Shown: positions 2,721 to 13,716 of the stretch, one piece after another
How the letters are laid out: the number at the start of each line of letters is the position of its first letter
Position numbering within the stretch: position 1 is the first letter of the stretch
From: a virus
Lineage: Duplodnaviria; Heunggongvirae; Uroviricota; Caudoviricetes
Strand: one strand, 5' to 3'
Virus record (IMG/VR): IMGVR_UViG_2778261086_000003
Span: 1 to 13,716 of that record
DNA length: 13,716 nucleotides
The notes under the pieces: generated by a model
Databases searched by the model: none
Seen by the model: only the letters and a program-made list of their open reading frames with translations
What the model was told of the DNA's origin: nothing
Position numbers and translations under genes: made by a program

Positions 2721-3046
2721 ACAGCTCCCCGTTTATTATTTATCTCCTCAGCCAGCCGCTGTGCTTTCAGGGGATTTCGGGTAACAGAAAGGCCGGGAAA
2801 TACCCAGCCTCGCTTTGTAACGGAGTAGACGAAAGTGATCGCGCCTATGAAACCAAGGACCTGGTTGATGTCGTAACCGGCGAAATCACTACTATCCAGT
2901 CGTTACGCCATACCTCCGATCTTGATACCGGAGAGATGTATGTCTTCCTGTGTAAGGTTGAAGCCTGGGCGATGAATATTGGCTGCCACCTGACTATTCC
3001 ACAGAGCTGCGAGTTTCAGCTGCTGCGCGACAAGCAGGAGGCGTAA
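2672..3046 (+). CDS. hypothetical protein, possibly the 3' remnant of a nin-region gene
   Basis: Reading frame ends at a TAA (3044-3046) that overlaps the ninE ATG. It has no convincing ATG with a ribosome-binding site, and its 5' end overlaps the divergent 63-aa gene. May be a truncated remnant left by a deletion. Confidence 0.3.
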   Translation: MPSQCSFLTQQEMLCAYSSPFIIYLLSQPLCFQGISGNRKAGKYPASLCNGVDESDRAYETKDLVDVVTGEITTIQSLRHTSDLDTGEMYVFLCKVEAWAMNIGCHLTIPQSCEFQLLRDKQEA

Positions 3047-3216
3047 TGGCTACACCGCTTATTCGTGTCATGAACGGACACATCTACAGAGTACCAAATC
3101 GTCGTAAGCGTAAACCTGAGCTGAAGCCATCCGAAATACCAACACTGCTCGGATATACCGCCAGCCTGGTTGATAAAAAATGGTTGCGACTGGCAGCAAG
3201 GAGGAGTCATGGCTGA
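3046..3216 (+). CDS. ninE: NinE protein (56 aa)
   Basis: Hand translation [56 protein letters not shown] matches the NinE family. AGGAGG lies 6 nt upstream; the stop overlaps the ybcO start region. Confidence 0.85.
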   Translation: MATPLIRVMNGHIYRVPNRRKRKPELKPSEIPTLLGYTASLVDKKWLRLAARRSHG

Positions 3217-3499
3217 TTTGAGAAAAGCAGCGCGTGGTCGGGAATGCCAGGTAAGAATCCCTGGCGTATGTAATGGCAACCCTGAAACGTCTGTACTGGC
3301 ACATATCCGGCTGACTGGATTGTGCGGCACCGGTACGAAACCGCCAGACCTGATTGCCACCATTGCATGTTCTGCCTGCCACGACGAAATCGACCGCCGC
3401 ACGCATTTTGTTGACGCTGGATATGCAAAAGAATGCGCGCTGGAAGGTATGGCGAGAACACAGGTTATCTGGCTGAAAGAGGGGGTTATTAAGGCGTGA
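3209..3499 (+). CDS. ybcO: YbcO-family nin-region protein (putative Zn-binding nuclease, 96 aa)
   Basis: [37 protein letters not shown]... with GGAGG at 3201-3205. Conserved Cys/His pattern. Sits in the ninE-ybcO-rusA order seen in DLP12-type prophages. Confidence 0.85.
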
Positions 3500-3858
3500 A
3501 TACCTACAGCATCACATTACCCTGGCCTCCGAGCAATAATCGCTATTACCGCCATAATCGCGGGCGCACGCACGTCAGCGCAGAGGGGCAGGCATACCGC
3601 GATAACGTCGCCCGAATCATTAAAAACGCAATGCTGGATATCGGCCTGGCTATGCCTGTGAAAATCCGCATTGAGTGCCACATGCCGGATCGCCGTCGCC
3701 GTGACCTGGATAATCTGCAAAAAGCCGCTTTTGACGCACTCACTAAAGCAGGTTTCTGGCTGGATGATGCTCAGGTCGTTGATTACCGCGTTGTGAAGAT
3801 GCCTGTTACCAAAGGTGGGAGGCTGGAACTGACCATCACCGAAATGGGGAATGAATGA
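3496..3858 (+). CDS. rusA: RusA Holliday-junction resolvase (120 aa)
   Basis: GTG start overlapping the ybcO stop (GTGA). Sequence [28 protein letters not shown]...[10 protein letters not shown] is recognisable as RusA. Confidence 0.9.
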
Positions 3859-3995
3859 TGTTTGAGTTTTATATGGCAGAACTTCTTCGCCACCGCTGGG
3901 GGCATCTGCGCTTATATCGTTTCCCCGGTTCTGTTTTGACCGATTACCGAATACTGAAGAATTACGCCAAAACCCTGACAGGAGCAGGAGTATGA
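3855..3995 (+). CDS. ylcG: YlcG small protein (46 aa)
   Basis: Hand-translated: [50 protein letters not shown] overlap with the rusA stop. Lies between rusA and Q as in DLP12. Confidence 0.75.
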
Positions 3996-4080
3996 AGTCA
4001 GAGATAACAATCAACTAATACTGTTTTGTTGATTTTTGCTTGTAATTGGCGTTCTGGTCTGATTTTTGTGGAGTAAGTTG

Positions 4081-4458
4081 ATGCGTGATATTCAGATGGT
4101 TCTTGAGCGTTGGGGAGCGTGGGCGGCTAATAATCATGAAGATGTGACCTGGTCGTCCATTGCCGCCGGTTTTAAGGGATTAATTACTTCAAAAGTAAAA
4201 TCTCGCCCGCAATGTTGTGACGATGACGCGATGATTATTTGCGGGTGCATGGCCCGTCTGAAAAAGAACAACAGCGATTTGCATGATTTATTGGTGGACT
4301 ATTATGTCGGCGGCATGACTTTTATGGCGCTTGCACGTAAGCATGGGCGATCTGATTGTTGGGTTGGCAGGATGCTCCAGAAAGCTGAGGGCGTAGTGGA
4401 GGGTATGCTGATGGTGTTGGATCTCCGATTGGAGATGGATGCTGATTGTTCGAAATAA
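4081..4458 (+). CDS. quuD: late-gene antiterminator Q (QuuD-like, 125 aa)
   Basis: ATG at 4081 preceded by GGAG (4070-4073); the ORF-track start at 4066 is a TTG extension. [24 protein letters not shown]... resembles DLP12/phage-82-type Q. Followed by a terminator, as expected for the pR'/tR' arrangement. Confidence 0.8.
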
Positions 4459-4558
4459 TTAAAGGAAAAGTTGCTGTCTGATTGTCATTAGTCTAACATT
4501 TTAAATGTTGGAATCGCAACGTAGTTATTATCATATAACAGCTTGTTTCCTGATTTAG
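4459..4558 (+). promoter_or_regulatory. putative late promoter and Q-utilisation region
   Basis: Position only: in lambdoid phages pR' and qut lie between Q and tR'. Weak -35/-10 candidates (TTGCTG...TAACAT) but no confident match. Confidence 0.3.
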
Positions 4559-4585
4559 CCAGCCTCCCCAAAGGCTGGTTTTTTT
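4559..4585 (+). terminator. rho-independent terminator (tR'-like)
   Basis: Stem CCAGCCT (4559-4565), loop CCCCAA, stem AGGCTGG (4572-4578), then TTTTTTT (4579-4585). Plus-strand only; the reverse read has no U-tract. Confidence 0.65.
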
Positions 4586-4613
4586 CTAATAAGTATTATT
4601 TCGGGTAGGGATT

Positions 4614-5138
4614 TTATTGTTTAACCCATAATAATTCATTGACATTGAATCCCAACTTTTGAGCGGTTCGCACATAGTCTGCTTTTACTTTATCTGGAAT
4701 AGTTGGGGTCCTTGCCAGAATCCATAGGTATTCTCTGTTCGGACCACTGACAAGAGCATACTTATACTCATCATCCAGTTTGATTACATTATAGCCACCA
4801 TAGAAGGGGCCAAAAAACGAAACCTTCAATGCTGCAGTTTTAGTATCTCCAGTAAAGTATGCTTTACCTTCGCTCTCGCTCCATTTATTTTTCGTTGGAT
4901 CGTATCCACGGTTAAGTACACGAATCCCTCCGTCGTTCCGTTTTCCATAAGTAGCGCTGACCTGTTCCAGATCACGTTCGAACCGGTTCTCGAGGCGAGC
5001 TATTTCATACCATTTTCCGAGGTAGCGGTTGGCGTCAAAATTTGTAATCGGCTGCACACCTTTAGGTGGTGTCGGGGCCTTACATGCTATAAGAGTGAAA
5101 GAGAGTGCAATGCCAGTCAACACAGGCCATAACTTCAT
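4614..5138 (-). CDS. Blc-family bacterial lipocalin, outer-membrane lipoprotein (174 aa)
   Basis: Signal peptide with lipobox (LIAC), then lipocalin signatures (NFDANRYLGKWYEIARLENRFE...YLWILARTP). Homologous to but distinct from chromosomal Blc. Lower GC than flanking phage genes and antisense to late transcription. Confidence 0.85.
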   Translation of the reverse strand: MKLWPVLTGIALSFTLIACKAPTPPKGVQPITNFDANRYLGKWYEIARLENRFERDLEQVSATYGKRNDGGIRVLNRGYDPTKNKWSESEGKAYFTGDTKTAALKVSFFGPFYGGYNVIKLDDEYKYALVSGPNREYLWILARTPTIPDKVKADYVRTAQKLGFNVNELLWVKQ

Positions 5139-5330
5139 AATAAATCCTGTACTTTTGATAGTTGAGAGTAAGTATGAAAGATAGATGATTACGACCGATC
5201 ACTTAAAGAACTTTCATACTATATTAGGAATAGTCCATAACAGAAAAATTGTCAGTGATGACGCCAGAAAGGCAATTTATTCCGTGCACTACACAGTTTA
5301 TGTGTTAATGAATTAGTCAAGGGGGAGAAT

Positions 5331-6290
5331 ATGATAAAAAAACCTGTGATTGGAATCAGCGGTTGTTTGGCCGGTTCTGCTGTTCGTTTTGATGGTGGTC
5401 ACAAAAGAGCTGACTTTTTAATGGACAAATTAGTGGAATGGGTAACATTCAGACCAGTATGTCCGGAAATGGCTATAGGGCTGCCAGTTCCGCGTCCTGC
5501 TCTACGTCTTGTGCGCTCGACGCAAGGAAATATACGGATGTGTTTCAGCCACGACCAGAATGAGGATGTGACAGAGAGAATGACAGAGTTTAGTCGTTCT
5601 TATATGGACAAATTAAAGGATGTATCGGGGTTTGTGGTTTGTGCTAAATCTCCCAGCTGTGGCATGGAGCGCGTGCGTGTCTATGATGAAAATGGTAATC
5701 GAGGTCGTAAAGATGGAGTGGGACTATTTACGAGTACTTTGATGGAAAAGTTTTCCTGGCTACCGGTTGAAGAGGATGGGCGATTACATGATCCAGTGCT
5801 TCGTGAGAATTTTGTTGAAAGAGTTTTTGCTTTGCATGAGCTCAATCACCTTTACAAGGAGAAATTATCAAGAAGAGAGTTATTAGCTTTTCATAGTCGT
5901 TATAAGCTTCAGTTGTTGGCGCATAGTCAGGCAGGCTATAAAGATATGGGACCATTTGTGGCTGCAATACACGAGTGGGCGGACCTTGAATCATACTTTG
6001 AGGTGTATCGTGATAATCTGATGGCGATTCTCAGAAAACCAGCATCACGTAAAAATCACACGAATGTGCTGATGCATATACAGGGGTATTTTAGTAATTA
6101 CTTAAGTACACGCCAGCGTAAAGAGTTGAGCGAGGTTATACTTAACTATCGCTTTGGCACATTGCCTCTTCTTGCGCCGTTGACTCTGCTGAAGCATTAT
6201 CTGGGTGAGTATCCTAATGATTACTTGCTTACACAGAATTACTTCGATCCCTATCCGGACGAACTGGCTCTAAGACTGATGGTAAATTAA
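5331..6290 (+). CDS. DUF523-DUF1722 fusion protein (RudS/TudS-like putative thionucleoside desulfidase, 319 aa)
   Basis: N-terminus has the DUF523-type Cys pattern (GISGCLAG, PVCPE, CAKSPSCGM), consistent with a [4Fe-4S] TudS-like fold. The C-terminal ~150 aa resemble the DUF1722 (YbgA-like) domain. GGAG 4 nt before the ATG. Domain call from memory, not HMM-verified. Confidence 0.65.
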   Translation: MIKKPVIGISGCLAGSAVRFDGGHKRADFLMDKLVEWVTFRPVCPEMAIGLPVPRPALRLVRSTQGNIRMCFSHDQNEDVTERMTEFSRSYMDKLKDVSGFVVCAKSPSCGMERVRVYDENGNRGRKDGVGLFTSTLMEKFSWLPVEEDGRLHDPVLRENFVERVFALHELNHLYKEKLSRRELLAFHSRYKLQLLAHSQAGYKDMGPFVAAIHEWADLESYFEVYRDNLMAILRKPASRKNHTNVLMHIQGYFSNYLSTRQRKELSEVILNYRFGTLPLLAPLTLLKHYLGEYPNDYLLTQNYFDPYPDELALRLMVN

Positions 6291-6641
6291 TTGTATGCGA
6301 TATCATCCAAAAGGATGAGTTCCTGCATGCAGGATATTTACAATCGTAAAAACTACACTATGATACCCAGAGTGTCAGTTTGTATAAAAACTCTGTTTAC
6401 GCTGAAGAAACAATTGAGATGCAACTTAAAGTTGGTAAACATGCCAGTCAAAATATATAATATTATGATTCCACGCAGCTATATATAATATAACAGATTG
6501 GTTTAATAATTTGTCTTTGTGAGTTAAATACATAATTTTATACTTGTGATGCAATGAAATTTTCCTTATTGTTGAACTGGCGAATATTGATTTTCCACCT
6601 ATACTTACCTGGTGTAACCCCAATGATATCAGGTGGATAAT

Positions 6642-7373
6642 ATGCCATACATATGTTCTATCATTTTGGTGTTGAACTCGTTTGATGTCCGAATTGGTAA
6701 AGAAGATATTTTGTTTAAAAAAGGAAGTGCTGTTCTCATTGATTACAATTTAAAAGATTTTTTTTCATCAAATATAGATCATGTAATGATCGTAGATGTT
6801 GAAGAGAAAACAGTTAATGATTTCTTTAAAAGCAACACACTCTCACCTTTTTCTGTAAGAAGGTTTTATCCGGCATACTTGATGGTGGAATGTGAAGATT
6901 TTTCATTGTTAAAGAACTTGATTGCATGCTTGAATTGTGATGGCAGAACTGTGGATTTTGTTAGAAATCAAATATCACTTGCATGTCTTGCTATCTTATC
7001 TTCAGAGAAAATAGTGCAAAGTTTTTTATTTGGATGTCTTAATAGTTTAGGAAGTAAAGTTAAGGCTATTATTCACACGGATATATCTGCAGCATGGAGA
7101 CTTTGTGATATATCTTCAAGACTGTATCTGAGTGAAAGTCTGTTAAAAAGAAAATTAAAGCACGAAGGCTTATCATTTAGTAAGTTAATTCTTGAAGAGC
7201 GAATGGTGATGGCGGAAAGGTTATTAAGCTACAATTTATATTCTGTTGGAAAAGTTGCTGAGATATGCGGTTATGAAAACACGTCATATTTTGTAAGTGT
7301 TTTCAGAAGATATTTTGGTGTTCCTCCCCATCAATATTCATCAAGATTTTTTTTAGAAAAAGACATGATGTAA
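6642..7373 (+). CDS. AraC/XylS-family transcriptional regulator (243 aa)
   Basis: C-terminal AraC-type HTH region (LLKRKLKHEGLSFSKLILEERMVMAERLL...VGKVAEICGYENTSYFVSVFRRYFGVPPHQY). ATG at 6642 with AGGTGG 5 nt upstream; the ORF-track start at 6633 is a GTG extension. Very AT-rich gene and leader. Confidence 0.75.
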   Translation: MPYICSIILVLNSFDVRIGKEDILFKKGSAVLIDYNLKDFFSSNIDHVMIVDVEEKTVNDFFKSNTLSPFSVRRFYPAYLMVECEDFSLLKNLIACLNCDGRTVDFVRNQISLACLAILSSEKIVQSFLFGCLNSLGSKVKAIIHTDISAAWRLCDISSRLYLSESLLKRKLKHEGLSFSKLILEERMVMAERLLSYNLYSVGKVAEICGYENTSYFVSVFRRYFGVPPHQYSSRFFLEKDMM

Positions 7374-7434
7374 CGTGATGCGTTTTAATGATTTTGTAAT
7401 TTTCGTATTTGATAATTGTATGATGCTTTCAGCT

Positions 7435-7466
7435 ACGCCAGAATAATCGCTGGCGTTTTTCTTTTT
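7435..7466 (+). terminator. rho-independent terminator downstream of the AraC gene
   Basis: Stem CGCCAG (7436-7441), loop AATAATCG, stem CTGGCG (7450-7455), then TTTTTCTTTTT. Confidence 0.55.
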
Positions 7467-7561
7467 GAATAGATGTTCAAGCCTTACGCTAATGTAACTT
7501 CTATACCTTTCCTCTTCGTTCCGAACCGTGTACACCATCCGTTATTTGCGGAGGTGAGGCT

Positions 7562-7777
7562 ATGAAATCTATGGATAAGTTAACAACGGGCATTGCCTAC
7601 GGTACCTCCGCAGGCAGTGCTGGCTACTGGTTTTTACAGCTGCTCGATAAAGTCACGCCCTCACAGTGGGCAGCAATAGGTGTATTGGGTAGTCTGGTAT
7701 TTGGCCTGCTGACGTACCTGACAAACCTTTATTTCAAGATTAAAGAAGATAAGCGCAAGGCTGCGAGAGGTGAATAA
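7562..7777 (+). CDS. essD: class II holin (phage 21 S21-like pinholin, 71 aa)
   Basis: [26 protein letters not shown]...; two transmembrane segments; dual-start motif Met1-Lys-Ser-Met4. GGAGGTGAGG ribosome-binding site. Stop overlaps the endolysin ATG (TAATG). Symbol follows DLP12 naming. Confidence 0.85.
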
Positions 7778-8274
7778 TGCCTCCATCATTACGAAAAGCC
7801 GTTGCTGCGGCTATTGGTGGCGGGGCTATTGCTATAGCATCTGTGTTAATCACTGGCCCAAGTGGTAACGATGGTCTGGAAGGCGTCAGCTACATACCAT
7901 ATAAAGATATCGTTGGTGTATGGACTGTATGTTACGGGCATACCGGAAAAGACATTATGCTCGGTAAAACGTATACCGAAGCAGAATGCAAAGCCCTCCT
8001 GAATAAAGACCTTGCCACTGTCGCCAGACAAATTAACCCGTACATCAAAGTCGATATACCGGAAACAACGCGCGGCGCTCTTTACTCGTTCGTTTACAAC
8101 GTTGGTGCTGGAAATTTCAGAACATCGACGCTTCTTCGCAAAATAAACCAGGGCGATATCAAAGGCGCATGTGATCAGCTACGGCGCTGGACATACGCTG
8201 GCGGTAAGCAATGGAAAGGGCTGATGACTCGCCGTGAGATTGAGCGTGAAGTCTGTTTGTGGGGGCAACAATGA
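7777..8274 (+). CDS. rrrD: SAR endolysin (phage 21 R21-like lysozyme, 165 aa)
   Basis: N-terminal Gly/Ala-rich weakly hydrophobic SAR segment ([20 protein letters not shown]), then a T4-lysozyme-like catalytic core. Stop overlaps the next ATG (ATGA). Symbol follows DLP12 naming. Confidence 0.9.
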
Positions 8275-8503
8275 GTAGAGTAACCGCGATTATGGTTCGA
8301 AATGGGATGTTATCCGTGAACGTGTGCTCAAGCGTGACAAAGGACTGTGTCAGTTATGTCTGCGTGGTGGTGTGGTGCGTGAGGCGAAAACCGTTGACCA
8401 CATCATCCCTAAAGCACATGGCGGCACTGATGCCGACAGCAATCTGCAGAGCCTGTGCTGGCCGTGTCATAAGGCGAAGACGGCCCGTGAACGGCTGAAG
8501 TAA
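8271..8503 (+). pseudogene. Rz (spanin) start fused to the 3' fragment of an HNH endonuclease gene
   Basis: ATG at 8271 encodes MSRVTAI, identical to the first seven residues of lambda-type Rz, then diverges. A different frame (from ~8279, after an in-frame TAG at 8276-8278, to TAA 8501-8503) encodes SNRDYGSKWDVIRERVLKRDKGLCQLC...DHIIPKAHGGTDADSNLQSLCWPCHKAKTARERLK, an HNH C-terminus with no start codon. Confidence 0.6.
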
Positions 8504-8628
8504 GAACCAGTTCCCACTGCCAGAGGGGAGGGGCGGGTCAAATCCCTGTGACCTGACGTCTTCCGGACTGCCCGCCCCATCGTTTTTTTATACCCGCGAA
8601 AAATGAAATTTAACCAGGAGTGCCGCAT
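8504..8628. other. putative cos / packaging-site region
   Basis: Non-coding, GC-rich, with an imperfect inverted repeat (GGGGCGGG ... CCCGCCCC) and a T-tract, located between the HNH fragment and the small terminase gene, the usual cos position in HK97-like modules. Cleavage site not identifiable by eye. Confidence 0.3.
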
Positions 8629-9123
8629 ATGGCTGGAACGGCGGGGCGTTCCGGGCGTCGCCCCAAGCCAACGGCGCGCAAGGCGCTGGCCGGAAACCCC
8701 GGCAAGCGAGCCCTGAACAAAGATGAACCTGTTTTTACGCCCATCAAAGGTGTTGAGCCACCGGAGTGGTTCGCTGAAGAAGATCTCCCTCTCGCCACGA
8801 TCATGTGGCAACTGACAACCAAAGAACTCTGCGGTCAGGGCCTGCTGTGCGTGACTGACCTCGCGGTGCTTGAGCGGTGGTGCGTGGCCTATGAGTTCTG
8901 GCGACGTGCCGTGAAAAATATTGCCAGACAGGGCAACACCATCACCGGTGCAATGGGCGGCATGGTCAAAAATCCGGAGCTGACCGCCAAAAAAGAACAG
9001 GAGTCCGAGATGAGCAGCACGGGGGCAATGCTCGGACTCGACCCCAGCAGCCGTCAGCGTCTGATTGGCCTGGCGGGGCAGAAGAAAACCACTAACCCGT
9101 TTCTGAAAATCATCGAATCATGA
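8629..9123 (+). CDS. terminase small subunit (P27/HK97 gp1-like, 164 aa)
   Basis: ATG at 8629 with AGGAG 9 nt upstream; the ORF-track start at 8620 is a GTG extension. Basic N-terminus ([27 protein letters not shown]). Stop overlaps the large terminase ATG (ATGA). Confidence 0.8.
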
Positions 9124-9938
9124 GCCGGAAATCTTACCCCAACGTAAATGCTGCCAATCAGTATGCCCGGGATGTCGTGCGCGGAAAGATTGTGGCCTGC
9201 CAGTTTGTGATTCAGGCCTGCCAGCGCCATCTTGATGACCTGATGGAGGAAAAAAGTAAGTCGTTTCGTTACCGCTTCGACAAGGACCTGGCTGAACGGG
9301 CCGCGAAATTTATTCAGCTGTTGCCGCACACCAAGGGTGAGTGGGCATTTAAGAGGATGCCCATCACGCTGGAGCCGTGGCAGCTCTTTGTGATCTGCTG
9401 CGCGTTTGGCTGGGTCAATAAAGGCTCCCGGCTGCGCCGCTTCTGTGAGGTGTATACCGAAATCCCCCGTAAGAACGGCAAATCGGCAATCTCTGCCGGT
9501 GTCGCCCTGTATTGTTTTGCCTGTGATAACGAGTTTGGCGCGGAAGTGTATTCCGGTGCCACGACAGAGAAACAGGCGTGGGAAGTCTTTCGCCCGGCGC
9601 GACTGATGTGTAAACGCACACCCATGCTGACGGAAGCGTTCGGGATTGAGGTTAACGCCTCAAACATGAACCGTCCGGAGGATGGCGCGCGGTTTGAACC
9701 GCTGATCGGCAACCCCGGTGATGGTTCATCACCCCACTGTGCGGTGGTGGATGAATATCACGAGCACGCCACCGATGCGCTTTATACCACGATGCTTACC
9801 GGGATGGGGGCGCGACGTCAGCCACTGATGTGGGCCATCACCACCGCCGGGTACAACATTGAGGGGCCGTGCTACGACAAGCGGCGGGAAGTTATCGAGA
9901 TGCTCAACGGTTCGGTATCAAATCGGATGGCACGGTGA
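9120..9938 (+). pseudogene. terminase large subunit, 3'-truncated (N-terminal ATPase domain only, 272 codons)
   Basis: Walker A motif (EIPRKNGKS) and ATPase-domain sequence present. The reading frame stops after ...EMLNGSV, whereas intact large terminases are roughly twice this length. Downstream sequence switches to unrelated glycine-rich coding. Confidence 0.8.
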
Positions 9939-10600
9939 AAACGGCTCTCGAAAACCTTGGTTTGGGAGATGGCTCGGGGCGTTACAGCAAAACTGTCGTT
10001 TTTTCATCGTCGGGTTCATATACGTGGCCAGCTGACGTAAAACGAATTGACGTTATTCTGACTGCGGGGGGCGGCGGTGGCGGTGGATGTAACGCGGAGA
10101 ACGCAAATCAGACATTTTCAGGGGCTGGCGGAGGAGCCGGAGGTACTGTTTTTGCCACTATTTATGCGACAGACAACGATGCCGGGCCAGGGACCTATAC
10201 AGTGACAATTGGCAGCGGTGGTAGTGGTGCCAATGGGCCAGGGTCTGGAAATAATGGCGGTAATAGTTCGTTCATGACATTAACTGCGCTCGGCGGCCAG
10301 GGTGGGCAATGGGGCGGCGCTACAAATACCGCTGGCGGGCGCGGTGGCTCAGGCTCTGGCGGTTATAAAACTGAACAAGGCGGAGACGGTTCAGACGGAC
10401 AGGCGGGCCAGGCGCTATTAGTAGGCAATGGGGCATCGAGCTATTGGGGTGGCGGCGGCCGCGCTGGGCAACTGAGCGGTAATCCTGGAGTTTGCTCTGG
10501 CTCCGGCGGCGGGGGTGCATACGATAATAGCTATTCACACACGTCAGGACGTGGCGGGCACGGAGCTAATGGCGTGCTGGTAATTCGGGAGTTCATGTAA
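9869..10600 (+). CDS. glycine-rich tail-fibre C-terminal fragment (5' end missing; real start unknown)
   Basis: ORF of 243 codons overlapping the truncated terminase. Sequence ...[26 protein letters not shown]... followed by long GGxGG/GSG runs is characteristic of glycine-rich domains of phage tail fibres. Immediately followed by a tail fibre assembly gene. The first ~15 codons are probably terminase DNA read out of frame. Confidence 0.5.
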
Positions 10601-11293: not shown

Positions 11294-12415
11294 TTAAGAT
11301 ATTCTTTTAGCTATAGAATGACCTATATTTATAAACGGTTTTTCTATTACGTTATATATCAAGTAAGATAGGCTTATAGAAATTATGAGCGATGATATAT
11401 AAATGGCAAACGATCTATGTTCAGTGCTAATACCAATACTGGAACCGTAAAACTCAATAAACTGTATAACAGGAACATGAATCAGATAAAGTGAATATGA
11501 TATTCCACCAAGAGCAACAAGTGATTTATTGAATGAAATAACTTTATTATTTTCTAGAATAATAACACACAAAACAATCAGAAATGCAATATATGCAGAT
11601 CGCGTCAAACCATGTCCTTCAGACACCCCATTAAGCCAAAAAACAAACATCATTCCTAGAATGAAAACGCATAAACTATTTATAATAGAATTATTCATTC
11701 TTTTATGCCTAAGTAAAGGCATTGTCTCTGATATAATCATCCCTAAAATGAAATCATATACTATAGGATTGCCTATGAATCCTATATGAGAAAACACCCC
11801 TGTTTTTGCAATATTGAATGATTGGGCGTCAATTACTACCGAGTGGTTAAAGTAAAGAGAAATAATTGTACTTACAGCAACTAGAAAACATGATGTGATT
11901 AATACCCTGTATTTTATGCTTAATGACATGGATATTGCGAAAATAAAATAAAAATATATCTCGTACCCAAGTGACCATGAAACAATTAGCGTTCCCCACC
12001 CATAATATGGCGGTAGAGTTGAGACATCTAAAGGGATGAGAAGAAATGATTTTATAATATTATTTATAGAAAAAACACCACCCCATGATACGCCTGTGTA
12101 AATATTGTGGTAAAAAAGAAAAACATAAACGCTTAATACTATTGCGTAAACAGGATAAATTCTAAAAAATCTCTTTACAAGAAATGAGGCGGTATTTCTT
12201 AAAGATGTTTTTGTAAAGTTTTTAGTTGAGTATGATATTATAAATCCGCTTATTATAAAAAACAATTCAACTCCAAATATAGCATTCGCGGTTATCCTGT
12301 CCATGAAAGAACCAGGATCTACTTGCCCGAAAAGACCTCTATTATGACCAATAGCTACAGCAAGAGCTGCAATTCCACGAAGCGCTTCTATTCCGTATAA
12401 TTTATCTGTTTTCAT
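11294..12415 (-). CDS. acyltransferase-3 family integral membrane O-acyltransferase (Oac/OafA-like, ~373 aa)
   Basis: Multi-pass hydrophobic protein with the N-terminal acyltransferase-3 signature (LYGIEALRGIAALAVAIGH). Start placed at ATG 12415; the ORF-track start at 12418 is a TTG. Very AT-rich and adjacent to the integrase, as for O-antigen acetylase genes of Shigella phages. Confidence 0.85.
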   Translation of the reverse strand: MKTDKLYGIEALRGIAALAVAIGHNRGLFGQVDPGSFMDRITANAIFGVELFFIISGFIISYSTKNFTKTSLRNTASFLVKRFFRIYPVYAIVLSVYVFLFYHNIYTGVSWGGVFSINNIIKSFLLIPLDVSTLPPYYGWGTLIVSWSLGYEIYFYFIFAISMSLSIKYRVLITSCFLVAVSTIISLYFNHSVVIDAQSFNIAKTGVFSHIGFIGNPIVYDFILGMIISETMPLLRHKRMNNSIINSLCVFILGMMFVFWLNGVSEGHGLTRSAYIAFLIVLCVIILENNKVISFNKSLVALGGISYSLYLIHVPVIQFIEFYGSSIGISTEHRSFAIYISSLIISISLSYLIYNVIEKPFINIGHSIAKRIS

Positions 12416-12558
12416 CAAGTAATATAGTTAGTAGTTGATAAAATTGTTGCTGGAGTCTACCACCAAGAGCTTGGATGATCGACCAGTTAGCATCTCAAGC
12501 TGTATGCGTGAGACAAAAACGAGACACACAAAGCTTTGCAAGTCTTTGCGCTGTTTAC

Positions 12559-13716
12559 CTATGATACCTTCTCCTCAATCCAATCCGCCCACCACTGCAT
12601 CATTTCTCTGCGCTTATCGAGATACTGAGCATGGTTGTAAATCCCGCGCACAGATCCGCCGTTGGCATGTGCCAGTTGCACTTCAATAGCATCAGCAGGC
12701 CATTCGTGCTCGTTCATAATCGTGCTGAATTCATGCCTGAATCCGTGACCGCTTTCCAGACCTTCATAGCCGATTTGTTTGATCACAAGCAGTACAGCGT
12801 TCTCGCAAATTGGCTTCTTCTTATCGTTGCGCCCGGCAAAAACAAACTCTGATACTGGTTTGGTGATTGAACTTAGCGTAGTGAGAAGTTCAACTACCTG
12901 GTCTGACATAGGAACCACATGAATCTTGCGTCCCTTCATCACACTGGCCTCGATGGTGATAATCCTGTTTTCAAAATCGACGTTCTTCCATTGCATGGAA
13001 CGAAGCTCTTTTGTTCTTAGTGCTGTGTAGCGTAAAACTTTGGTCGCAATGAGAGATACGATACTTCCTGAAAATGTTGCAAGTGCTTTGTTGAATGCCG
13101 GGATCTGGTCGGCAGGTAAAAACGGGAAGTTCTTCTTGCGGTATCCTTTCATGGCGTCTGCAAGGTCAGGTGCCGGGTTATATTTAGCCCTTCCGGTGAC
13201 AATAGCGTAACGAAAAACCTCGCCGCATCTTCTGCGGGCTTTGTTGGCTCGCTCCATTGCACCGCGATCTTCAAATCTTCGGATTACTTCCAGCAGTTGC
13301 ATCGGCTCAATATCCTGAATTTCAAGACCGCCGATGATGGGTAAAATGTCGTCATCAAACATTTTGGCAAGTTCAGTTGCATAGCCTACTGACCAGACTT
13401 GCTTCTTGTGCTCGTACCATTCCTTGTAAATCGCACTAAATGAATTGTTGTTAGACGAAGCCTTTTTCGCCTTTACCGGATCGATGCCAACCGAGATGTC
13501 TTTCCTCGCAGTCCATGCCTTATCCCTTGCTTCCTGCAAAGTCATAAGCGGATATTTTCCGACAGTCAGGATTTTCTCCTTACCGTCAATCTTGTAGCGA
13601 AGCTGCCATACCTTTTTCCCTGATACAGGGACATAAAGGTACAGGCCATTACCATCGAGTAGGCGGTATGGTTTTTCTTTCGGCTTTGCTGCTTCAATCT
13701 GCTTAACGGTGAGCAT
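12559..13716 (-). CDS. tyrosine-type site-specific integrase (P4/CPS-53 IntS-like, 385 aa)
   Basis: Full ORF whose ATG is the last three bases of the window. C-terminal catalytic signature (HGFRHEF ... LAHANGGSVRGIYNHAQY). N-terminus MLTVKQIEAAKPKEKPYRLLDGNGLYLYVPV is typical of tRNA-associated P4-family integrases. Attachment site would lie beyond the window. Confidence 0.9.
   Translation of the reverse strand: MLTVKQIEAAKPKEKPYRLLDGNGLYLYVPVSGKKVWQLRYKIDGKEKILTVGKYPLMTLQEARDKAWTARKDISVGIDPVKAKKASSNNNSFSAIYKEWYEHKKQVWSVGYATELAKMFDDDILPIIGGLEIQDIEPMQLLEVIRRFEDRGAMERANKARRRCGEVFRYAIVTGRAKYNPAPDLADAMKGYRKKNFPFLPADQIPAFNKALATFSGSIVSLIATKVLRYTALRTKELRSMQWKNVDFENRIITIEASVMKGRKIHVVPMSDQVVELLTTLSSITKPVSEFVFAGRNDKKKPICENAVLLVIKQIGYEGLESGHGFRHEFSTIMNEHEWPADAIEVQLAHANGGSVRGIYNHAQYLDKRREMMQWWADWIEEKVS

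Follow-up and report, generated by a model that had tools for sequence, protein, structure and literature searches.

The segment at 8271–8503 of the window (the whole 13,716-nucleotide stretch of DNA that was analyzed) is, with a probability of roughly 0.93, the scar left by a single 1,361-bp deletion in a lambdoid/HK97-type prophage that is integrated at argW/intS in E. coli. The deletion joined the start of the spanin gene Rz to the 3' part of a terminase-associated HNH endonuclease gene. This joint is a real but ordinary pseudogenization scar of prophage decay and represents no new kind of system; the segment is best annotated as a pseudogene junction (Rz 5' fragment plus HNH 3' fragment), not as a small ORF. 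The argW element itself is a dead remnant whose lysis cassette lacks spanins, and it matters little beyond annotation. It provides a clean, datable case of short-homology deletion in prophage decay and shows that an alternative reading frame within a conserved HNH gene can come to resemble a gene (cf. phrog_25498).

Breakpoint of the 1,361-bp deletion

Two complete E. coli genomes with the undeleted arrangement, those of strains Yu5 and 2018-05-2CC (the latter carrying it at the same argW site), were used as references. In both, the gene order is essD, rrrD, Rz (with Rz1 embedded), a DUF6979 gene, a 67-aa ORF, a 116-aa HNH gene, terS (P27) and terL, and the window matches them at 97.6–99.7% on either side of 8293. 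Alignment against Yu5 resolved two colinear blocks, and 2018-05-2CC gave the same two-block pattern. The blocks and the junction between them are as follows:

6646–8293, matching Yu5 locus 1–1648 at 99.6% over 1,648 bp and ending 23 nt into Yu5 Rz
8285–9917, matching Yu5 locus 3001–4633 at 99.7% over 1,633 bp and beginning inside the Yu5 HNH gene
8290–8293, no strand assigned, deletion junction TTAT, placed by three-way alignment and side-by-side junction comparison

The gap between the two blocks was exactly 1,361 bp in both relatives. The deleted stretch runs from Rz nt 24 to HNH nt 141, and Rz nt 23 is now joined to HNH nt 142. Lost with it were Rz and its embedded Rz1, the DUF6979 gene, the 67-aa ORF and the first 46 HNH codons. 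A deletion joining rz to the HNH gene, with loss of Rz/Rz1 and of anything in between, had been proposed in the preliminary description; the breakpoint lies where that description placed it, as a single loss relative to Yu5 and 2018-05-2CC, and the relatives supply the identity of the intervening genes. The alignment against intact relatives that it called for also resolved the microhomology. The BLAST segments of the two sides overlap at 8285–8293, and within this overlap TTAT is an exact 4-bp microhomology common to both parental sides. The longer CGCG[A/G]TTAT, spanning 8285–8293, is an 8/9 match, with one mismatch in every HNH allele seen. Up to the joint the Rz-side flank reads ACCGCGATTAT, followed by CTCCGC; the HNH-side flank reads CAGCGCGGTTAT, followed by GGTTCG; and the window reads ACCGCGATTAT, followed by GGTTCG. 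Comparison of these three flanks places the crossover within TTAT at 8290–8293.

The join is out of frame by one, and the reading from the Rz ATG therefore continues in a frame of HNH other than its own. Rz and HNH are each complete in the relatives and cut short in the window, so the event was a deletion in the window lineage. The converse, an insertion in the relatives, was ruled out, Rz and HNH being intact there and both truncated in the window. Nor are the likenesses to MSRVTAI and to HNH due to chance, since the window is made up here of two near-identical blocks of the same Yu5 prophage. A promoter and terminator scan of 7300–9200 found nothing at the Rz/HNH junction. A 4-bp microhomology is by itself too short to identify the mechanism of deletion; we infer that illegitimate recombination or replication slippage at the short homology (TTAT exact, CGCGRTTAT 8/9) joined Rz to HNH.

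For determination of how widely the joint occurs, an 86-nt junction probe and the interval 7500–9200 were compared by megablast with 5,426 complete E. coli genomes, among which no record spanned the Rz/HNH joint. Exact-pattern scans likewise found the junction absent from GTDB representative genomes and from JGI metagenome contigs. On the basis of its absence from these three collections, the junction is private to one lineage. The surviving holin, endolysin, terS and HNH C terminus show no amino-acid differences from Yu5, and such undamaged genes fit a deletion that occurred recently and within a narrow lineage.

Spanin remnant and neighboring lysis and packaging genes

The genes flanking the joint, and what is left of Rz, were assigned as follows:

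7562–7777, plus strand, intact essD-like holin gene of phage-21 S type (PF04971 Phage_holin_2_1, E = 2.2e-35)
7777–8274, plus strand, intact rrrD-like lysozyme (endolysin) gene (PF00959 Phage_lysozyme, E = 7.3e-47)
8271–8293, plus strand, what remains of the 5' end of the i-spanin gene Rz, 7 codons (MSRVTAI) and a further 2 nt, contiguous with the 1,648-bp Yu5 block
8629–9123, plus strand, intact small terminase subunit gene of the P27 family (PF05119, E = 2.3e-21)
9120–9938, plus strand, gene for the large terminase subunit, cut short at codon 266 of 577 by another deletion (junction 9916/9917)

The holin (71 aa) is identical in protein sequence to Yu5 essD, the name given by PGAP to its homologue, and the genes for the endolysin (165 aa) and TerS (164 aa) show no nucleotide differences from Yu5 rrrD and terS. 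Nucleotide differences from Yu5 in the holin gene and the HNH C terminus are all synonymous. The ATG of the Rz remnant (8271–8273) overlaps the endolysin TGA (8272–8274), and its position directly downstream of the endolysin gene is the same in Yu5 and 2018-05-2CC. This overlapping ATG, with MSRVTAI read as the start of Rz, had been picked out from the sequence before any comparison, and the reading was borne out by the match of its first 23 nt to the Yu5 Rz gene. In Yu5 the full-length Rz is a 147-aa protein, annotated as 'lysis protein' (PF03245, E = 2.2e-39; phrog_13, E = 1.8e-69 over 1–153/154), and Rz1 is a +1-frame ORF embedded within it, with the lipobox LVVSGC (phrog_3198, E = 8e-26).

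A search for spanins elsewhere in the window was carried out by tblastn and by lipobox scanning. With Yu5 and lambda Rz/Rz1 as queries, tblastn gave no match in the window past the first 7–8 residues, and no match to Rz1. A six-frame lipobox scan, which recovered the Rz1 of the Yu5 locus as a positive control, yielded a 174-aa lipocalin gene as the sole lipobox ORF in the window; neither an o-spanin lipoprotein nor a unimolecular spanin of the T1 gp11 type was thus found. As for the i-spanin, with 7 Rz codons remaining, the transmembrane domain and periplasmic coiled coil of a two-component spanin are gone, and the maximum 19-residue hydropathy is 1.4 in the 75-aa ORF that now begins at the Rz ATG, compared with 2.45 in intact Rz. 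The lysis cassette is therefore incomplete, as had been suggested, with holin and endolysin intact and no intact Rz/Rz1 pair or other spanin in the window.

In its ATG over the endolysin stop and in the MSRVTAI of its relatives' 147-aa Rz, the remnant resembles the embedded Rz/Rz1 genes of the lambda family (lambda; DLP12 rzpD/rzoD). Unlike these, it is left with only 23 nt, the transmembrane domain, the periplasmic coiled coils and all of Rz1 having been deleted. It is a remnant and not a member of the lambda-family Rz/Rz1 spanins. In lambda, a spanin defect prevents lysis, and the cells end up as spheres still enclosed by an intact outer membrane (PMC5295617). The window resembles lambda Rz or Rz1 null mutants in having holin and endolysin with no spanin, but it differs in being a natural deletion in a defective prophage. 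By analogy with these mutants, expression of the late operon would be expected to give a spanin-null phenotype, in which peptidoglycan is degraded and the outer membrane is left undisrupted, unless another prophage were to supply spanins in trans.

HNH remnant and the 75-aa fusion ORF

Downstream of the joint, three overlapping features were distinguished:

8291–8503, plus strand, 3' remnant of the terminase-associated HNH endonuclease gene, Y47–K116 plus stop (PF01844; comparison with Yu5)
8324–8503, plus strand, reading from the only possible in-frame start for the HNH remnant, a GTG, 59 aa (codon list and upstream sequence)
8271–8498, plus strand, fortuitous 75-aa fusion ORF, Rz codons 1–7 followed by the +1 frame of HNH (ORF translation)

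The HNH frame at 8279–8503, open after a TAG at 8276–8278, translates as SNRDYGSKWDVIRERVLKRDKGLCQLC...DHIIPKAHGG...NLQSLCWPCHKAKTARERLK and also reads ...YGSKWDVIRERVLKRDKGLCQLC...DHIIPKAHGG...NLQSLCWPCHKAKTARERLK. It matches the Pfam HNH profile PF01844 over positions 1–47/47 (E = 1.1e-16) and PHROG HNH families at E = 1e-30. The 70 remaining residues are identical to the C terminus of the 116-aa Yu5 HNH, and the beta-beta-alpha-metal motif with both CxxC pairs (CQLC and CWPC) is present in the translation. The Yu5 protein can be aligned over its full length with GVE2 HNHE, whose structure has been solved (5h0m; E = 1e-11). Residues 1–46, which were deleted in the window, hold the N-terminal Cys/His region of zinc-ribbon type, including C9, C14, C25 and H28 (C-x4-C...C-x2-H) as aligned with the GVE2 HNHE N terminus.

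The intact HNH gene has a GGAG Shine–Dalgarno sequence 6 nt upstream of its ATG, and the deletion removed both, leaving the remnant with no ribosome-binding site and start of its own. Between the TAG at 8276–8278 and the GTG at 8324 there is no ATG, GTG or TTG in the HNH frame; no Shine–Dalgarno sequence was found within 20 nt upstream of this GTG, and the annotation of the source contig has no gene call at 8324–8503. The preliminary description had held that the HNH motif lies in another frame with no start codon of its own and that the gene is probably inactive. The motif and the loss of the ATG stood, but the statement about the start has to be qualified by the in-frame GTG at 8324. Inactivity in turn is favored by the loss of ATG, Shine–Dalgarno sequence and N-terminal region and opposed by the completeness of the catalytic HNH/CxxC motif. 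If the remnant is inactive, this would follow from the lost start, Shine–Dalgarno sequence and zinc ribbon, and by analogy from truncations of the phage gamma enzyme, rather than from any damage to the active site. When the phage gamma HNH nickase is shortened from its N terminus, a 76-aa form keeps weak activity and a 61-aa form is essentially inactive (PMC3592412); these 61-aa (inactive) and 76-aa (weak) forms are the closest analogues of the window remnant.

Like HK97 gp74, GVE2 HNHE (5h0m) and the zinc-ribbon HNH nickases (Xu & Gupta 2013), the remnant lies directly upstream of terS/terL, although terL is truncated here, and has a complete HNH/[CxxC]2 motif. Unlike these terminase-associated enzymes (PF01844; phrog_144/589), it lacks residues 1–46, the ATG and the Shine–Dalgarno sequence. 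HK97 gp74 promotes cos cleavage by TerL (PMC9410871). In the window, TerL_ATPase is the only domain found in TerL, and a role of the HNH protein in cos cleavage is moot because TerL is cut at codon 266/577 and has no nuclease domain. The deletion took the promoter-proximal ATG and Shine–Dalgarno sequence from an HNH gene sitting upstream of cos and terS, and the product would be a non-functional Rz'-'HNH pseudogene. From the endolysin-coupled ATG, 7 codons of Rz are read before 68 codons in the wrong frame of HNH, and the catalytic HNH core would persist untranslated or, at best, poorly translated.

The 75-aa ORF, in which MSRVTAI is followed by 68 residues from the wrong frame of HNH, carries a strong positive charge (pI 11.2; 13 K+R against 1 D+E). 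It has no Pfam match, and exact look-ups of the 75-aa and a 79-aa fusion product returned nothing on record. It does match phrog_25498 ('unknown function') at E = 5e-7. Since the intact HNH gene of Yu5 has an open +1 frame of 118 aa (Yu5 locus 2858–3214), both the ORF and its PHROG match are explained as a shadow frame. The members of phrog_25498 may themselves be shadow ORFs called in error on top of HNH genes.

About 20 public draft contigs start at one base inside the HNH gene, equivalent to window 8313, and gene prediction on these contigs yields a 59-aa 'HNH' protein with the same sequence as window 8324–8503. These records were considered as further examples of the deletion and rejected, the contigs merely beginning inside the HNH gene; their starts are assembly breaks at a prophage repeat boundary and not truncated genes. 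Between the HNH stop and terS, at 8528–8590, there is a GC-rich inverted repeat, GGGGCGGG ... CCCGCCCC, then T7, at the position where HK97-type phages have cos. The fold of 8500–8600 was not significantly more stable than those of shuffled sequences (z = -1.28), and a simple terminator scan of 7300–9200 did not flag the repeat.

State of the argW element and alternative readings

The whole window corresponds at 100% identity to 83–13798 of NNXC01000009.1 (GCA_002486895.1), a draft E. coli contig, and the adjoining chromosomal genes yfdC, mlaA, yfdF and fadL are 100% identical to those of several complete E. coli genomes. The features that bear on integration and on early genes are the following:

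12559–13716, minus strand, integrase gene, named intS in the annotation of the close relative 2018-05-2CC
left of junction 2846/2847, early genes for DUF551, an HNH-like protein (864–1391), Ead/Ea22, a TraR/DksA zinc finger, DUF1382 and DUF1317

A tRNA-Arg(CCT) gene, at 13960–14034 of the source-contig locus (L006), adjoins the integrase, and the element lies between yfdC and the dsdC/emrY side. Together, intS, the adjoining tRNA-Arg(CCT) and the E. coli flanks identify the element as a prophage at the argW/intS site of E. coli. In K-12 this site is the location of CPS-53/KpLE1. The window element differs from the K-12 remnant in gene content, having an acyltransferase instead of gtrABS and retaining a lysis/packaging fragment. 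With CPS-53 (KpLE1) and related remnants it shares an IntS-type integrase next to tRNA-Arg(CCT) and the state of a multiply deleted, non-inducible remnant that has lost modules essential for lytic growth, whereas its three deletion junctions are private to its own lineage.

Two junctions other than that of Rz and HNH were located. At 9916/9917, terL is joined to the C-terminal part of a glycine-rich tail-fiber gene (ORFs 9120–9938 and 9869–10600), with microhomology of at most 1–2 bp; everything from mid-terL to the tail fiber is gone, and 4,910 bp are missing relative to 2018-05-2CC, which is already a remnant. At 2846/2847, the leftward early genes abut a 5'-truncated ybcN on the other strand, and immunity and replication genes are absent. 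Neither junction was spanned by any complete E. coli genome (0/5,426), and no gene for a portal, capsid or tail protein is present in the window. Two recorded contigs that share a gene neighborhood both encode the truncated-terL product of the element. Since these further deletions took immunity and replication functions and nearly all head and tail genes, the element is non-viable, and with terL cut and no portal, capsid or tail genes present, the loss of Rz and HNH is of little consequence. Even with the late operon expressed, no phage would be made, at least two further deletions having occurred.

As the source is a draft contig, an assembler could have misjoined the Rz and HNH regions across an interval that is in reality intact; the HNH/terS region recurs from one E. 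coli prophage to another, and in other assemblies contigs are broken inside the HNH gene at the equivalent of window 8313. Such a misjoin is nevertheless highly improbable: the 4–9 bp common to both sides of the join are far below any assembler k-mer, the join is clean and has no ambiguous bases, the truncated-terL product recurs on a second contig with the same neighborhood, and the further two clean deletion junctions are in keeping with genuine decay of the prophage. An inter-phage boundary formed by illegitimate recombination, where the lambda-type lysis module of one phage meets the HK97-type packaging module of another, rather than a deletion in situ, would accord with the mosaicism of lambdoid genomes and with matches in the phage collection, which are lambda-like on the left and to vB_EcoM-720R4 / 118970_sal3 on the right. 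It is given little weight, however, because both halves best match the same Yu5 prophage (99.6 and 99.7%), with order and orientation kept and a spacing of exactly 1,361 bp, 2018-05-2CC, also integrated at argW, shows the same colinearity, and a functional joint would not cut both flanking genes out of frame. Judged from these alignments, a deletion in situ is the more parsimonious reading.

Other readings accept the deletion and assign a function to its products. Expression of the HNH remnant from the GTG at 8324, as a 59-aa mini-nuclease with residual activity, would be in line with its complete Pfam HNH motif, its two CxxC pairs and a sequence with no amino-acid change relative to the intact protein; gene callers accept the same ORF at contig ends of other assemblies, and the 76-aa phage gamma core keeps weak nicking activity (PMC3592412). 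This is decidedly unlikely, given a GTG with no Shine–Dalgarno sequence within 20 nt upstream and no gene called in the source contig, a 61-aa phage gamma truncation, the closest in length, that is essentially inactive (PMC3592412), and a partner TerL whose missing nuclease domain removes the role in cos cleavage. The 75-aa ORF could in principle encode a new functional peptide, for instance a cationic outer-membrane disruptor replacing the spanin. Its ATGA start is still translationally coupled to the preceding endolysin gene, its pI is 11.2, it matches phrog_25498 at E = 5e-7, and in some phages spanins can be replaced by cationic peptides (bioRxiv 10.1101/515445). The odds of this are nonetheless vanishingly small: the alternative frame is open for 118 aa in Yu5 HNH and accounts for both the ORF and the PHROG match as a shadow frame, no Pfam domain and no identical product on record were found, and a junction private to one lineage carries no sign of selection. 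More broadly, that the spanin-less holin–endolysin pair serves the host as a non-explosive release device (for periplasmic content or vesicles), or that the 75-aa peptide substitutes for a spanin, is very improbable. No support for selection on either was found, the junction being confined to one lineage, and a recent deletion would equally explain why holin and endolysin show no amino-acid changes. The reading of 8271–8503 as the pseudogene scar of one deletion is therefore retained.

Genes unrelated to lysis and packaging were also observed in the element. Between the antiterminator Q gene (4066–4458) and the holin gene there is a block of genes at 4614–7373 that does not look phage-derived and that the undeleted relatives carry as well, and a further gene adjoins intS:

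5138–4614, minus strand, lipocalin lipoprotein gene (174 aa)
5331–6290, YbgA-family DUF523+DUF1722 protein gene
6633–7373, AraC-type regulator gene
11294–12418, minus strand, Acyl_transf_3 membrane acyltransferase gene

The acyltransferase gene is present in strain 2018-05-2CC too, and its role is possibly O-antigen modification.
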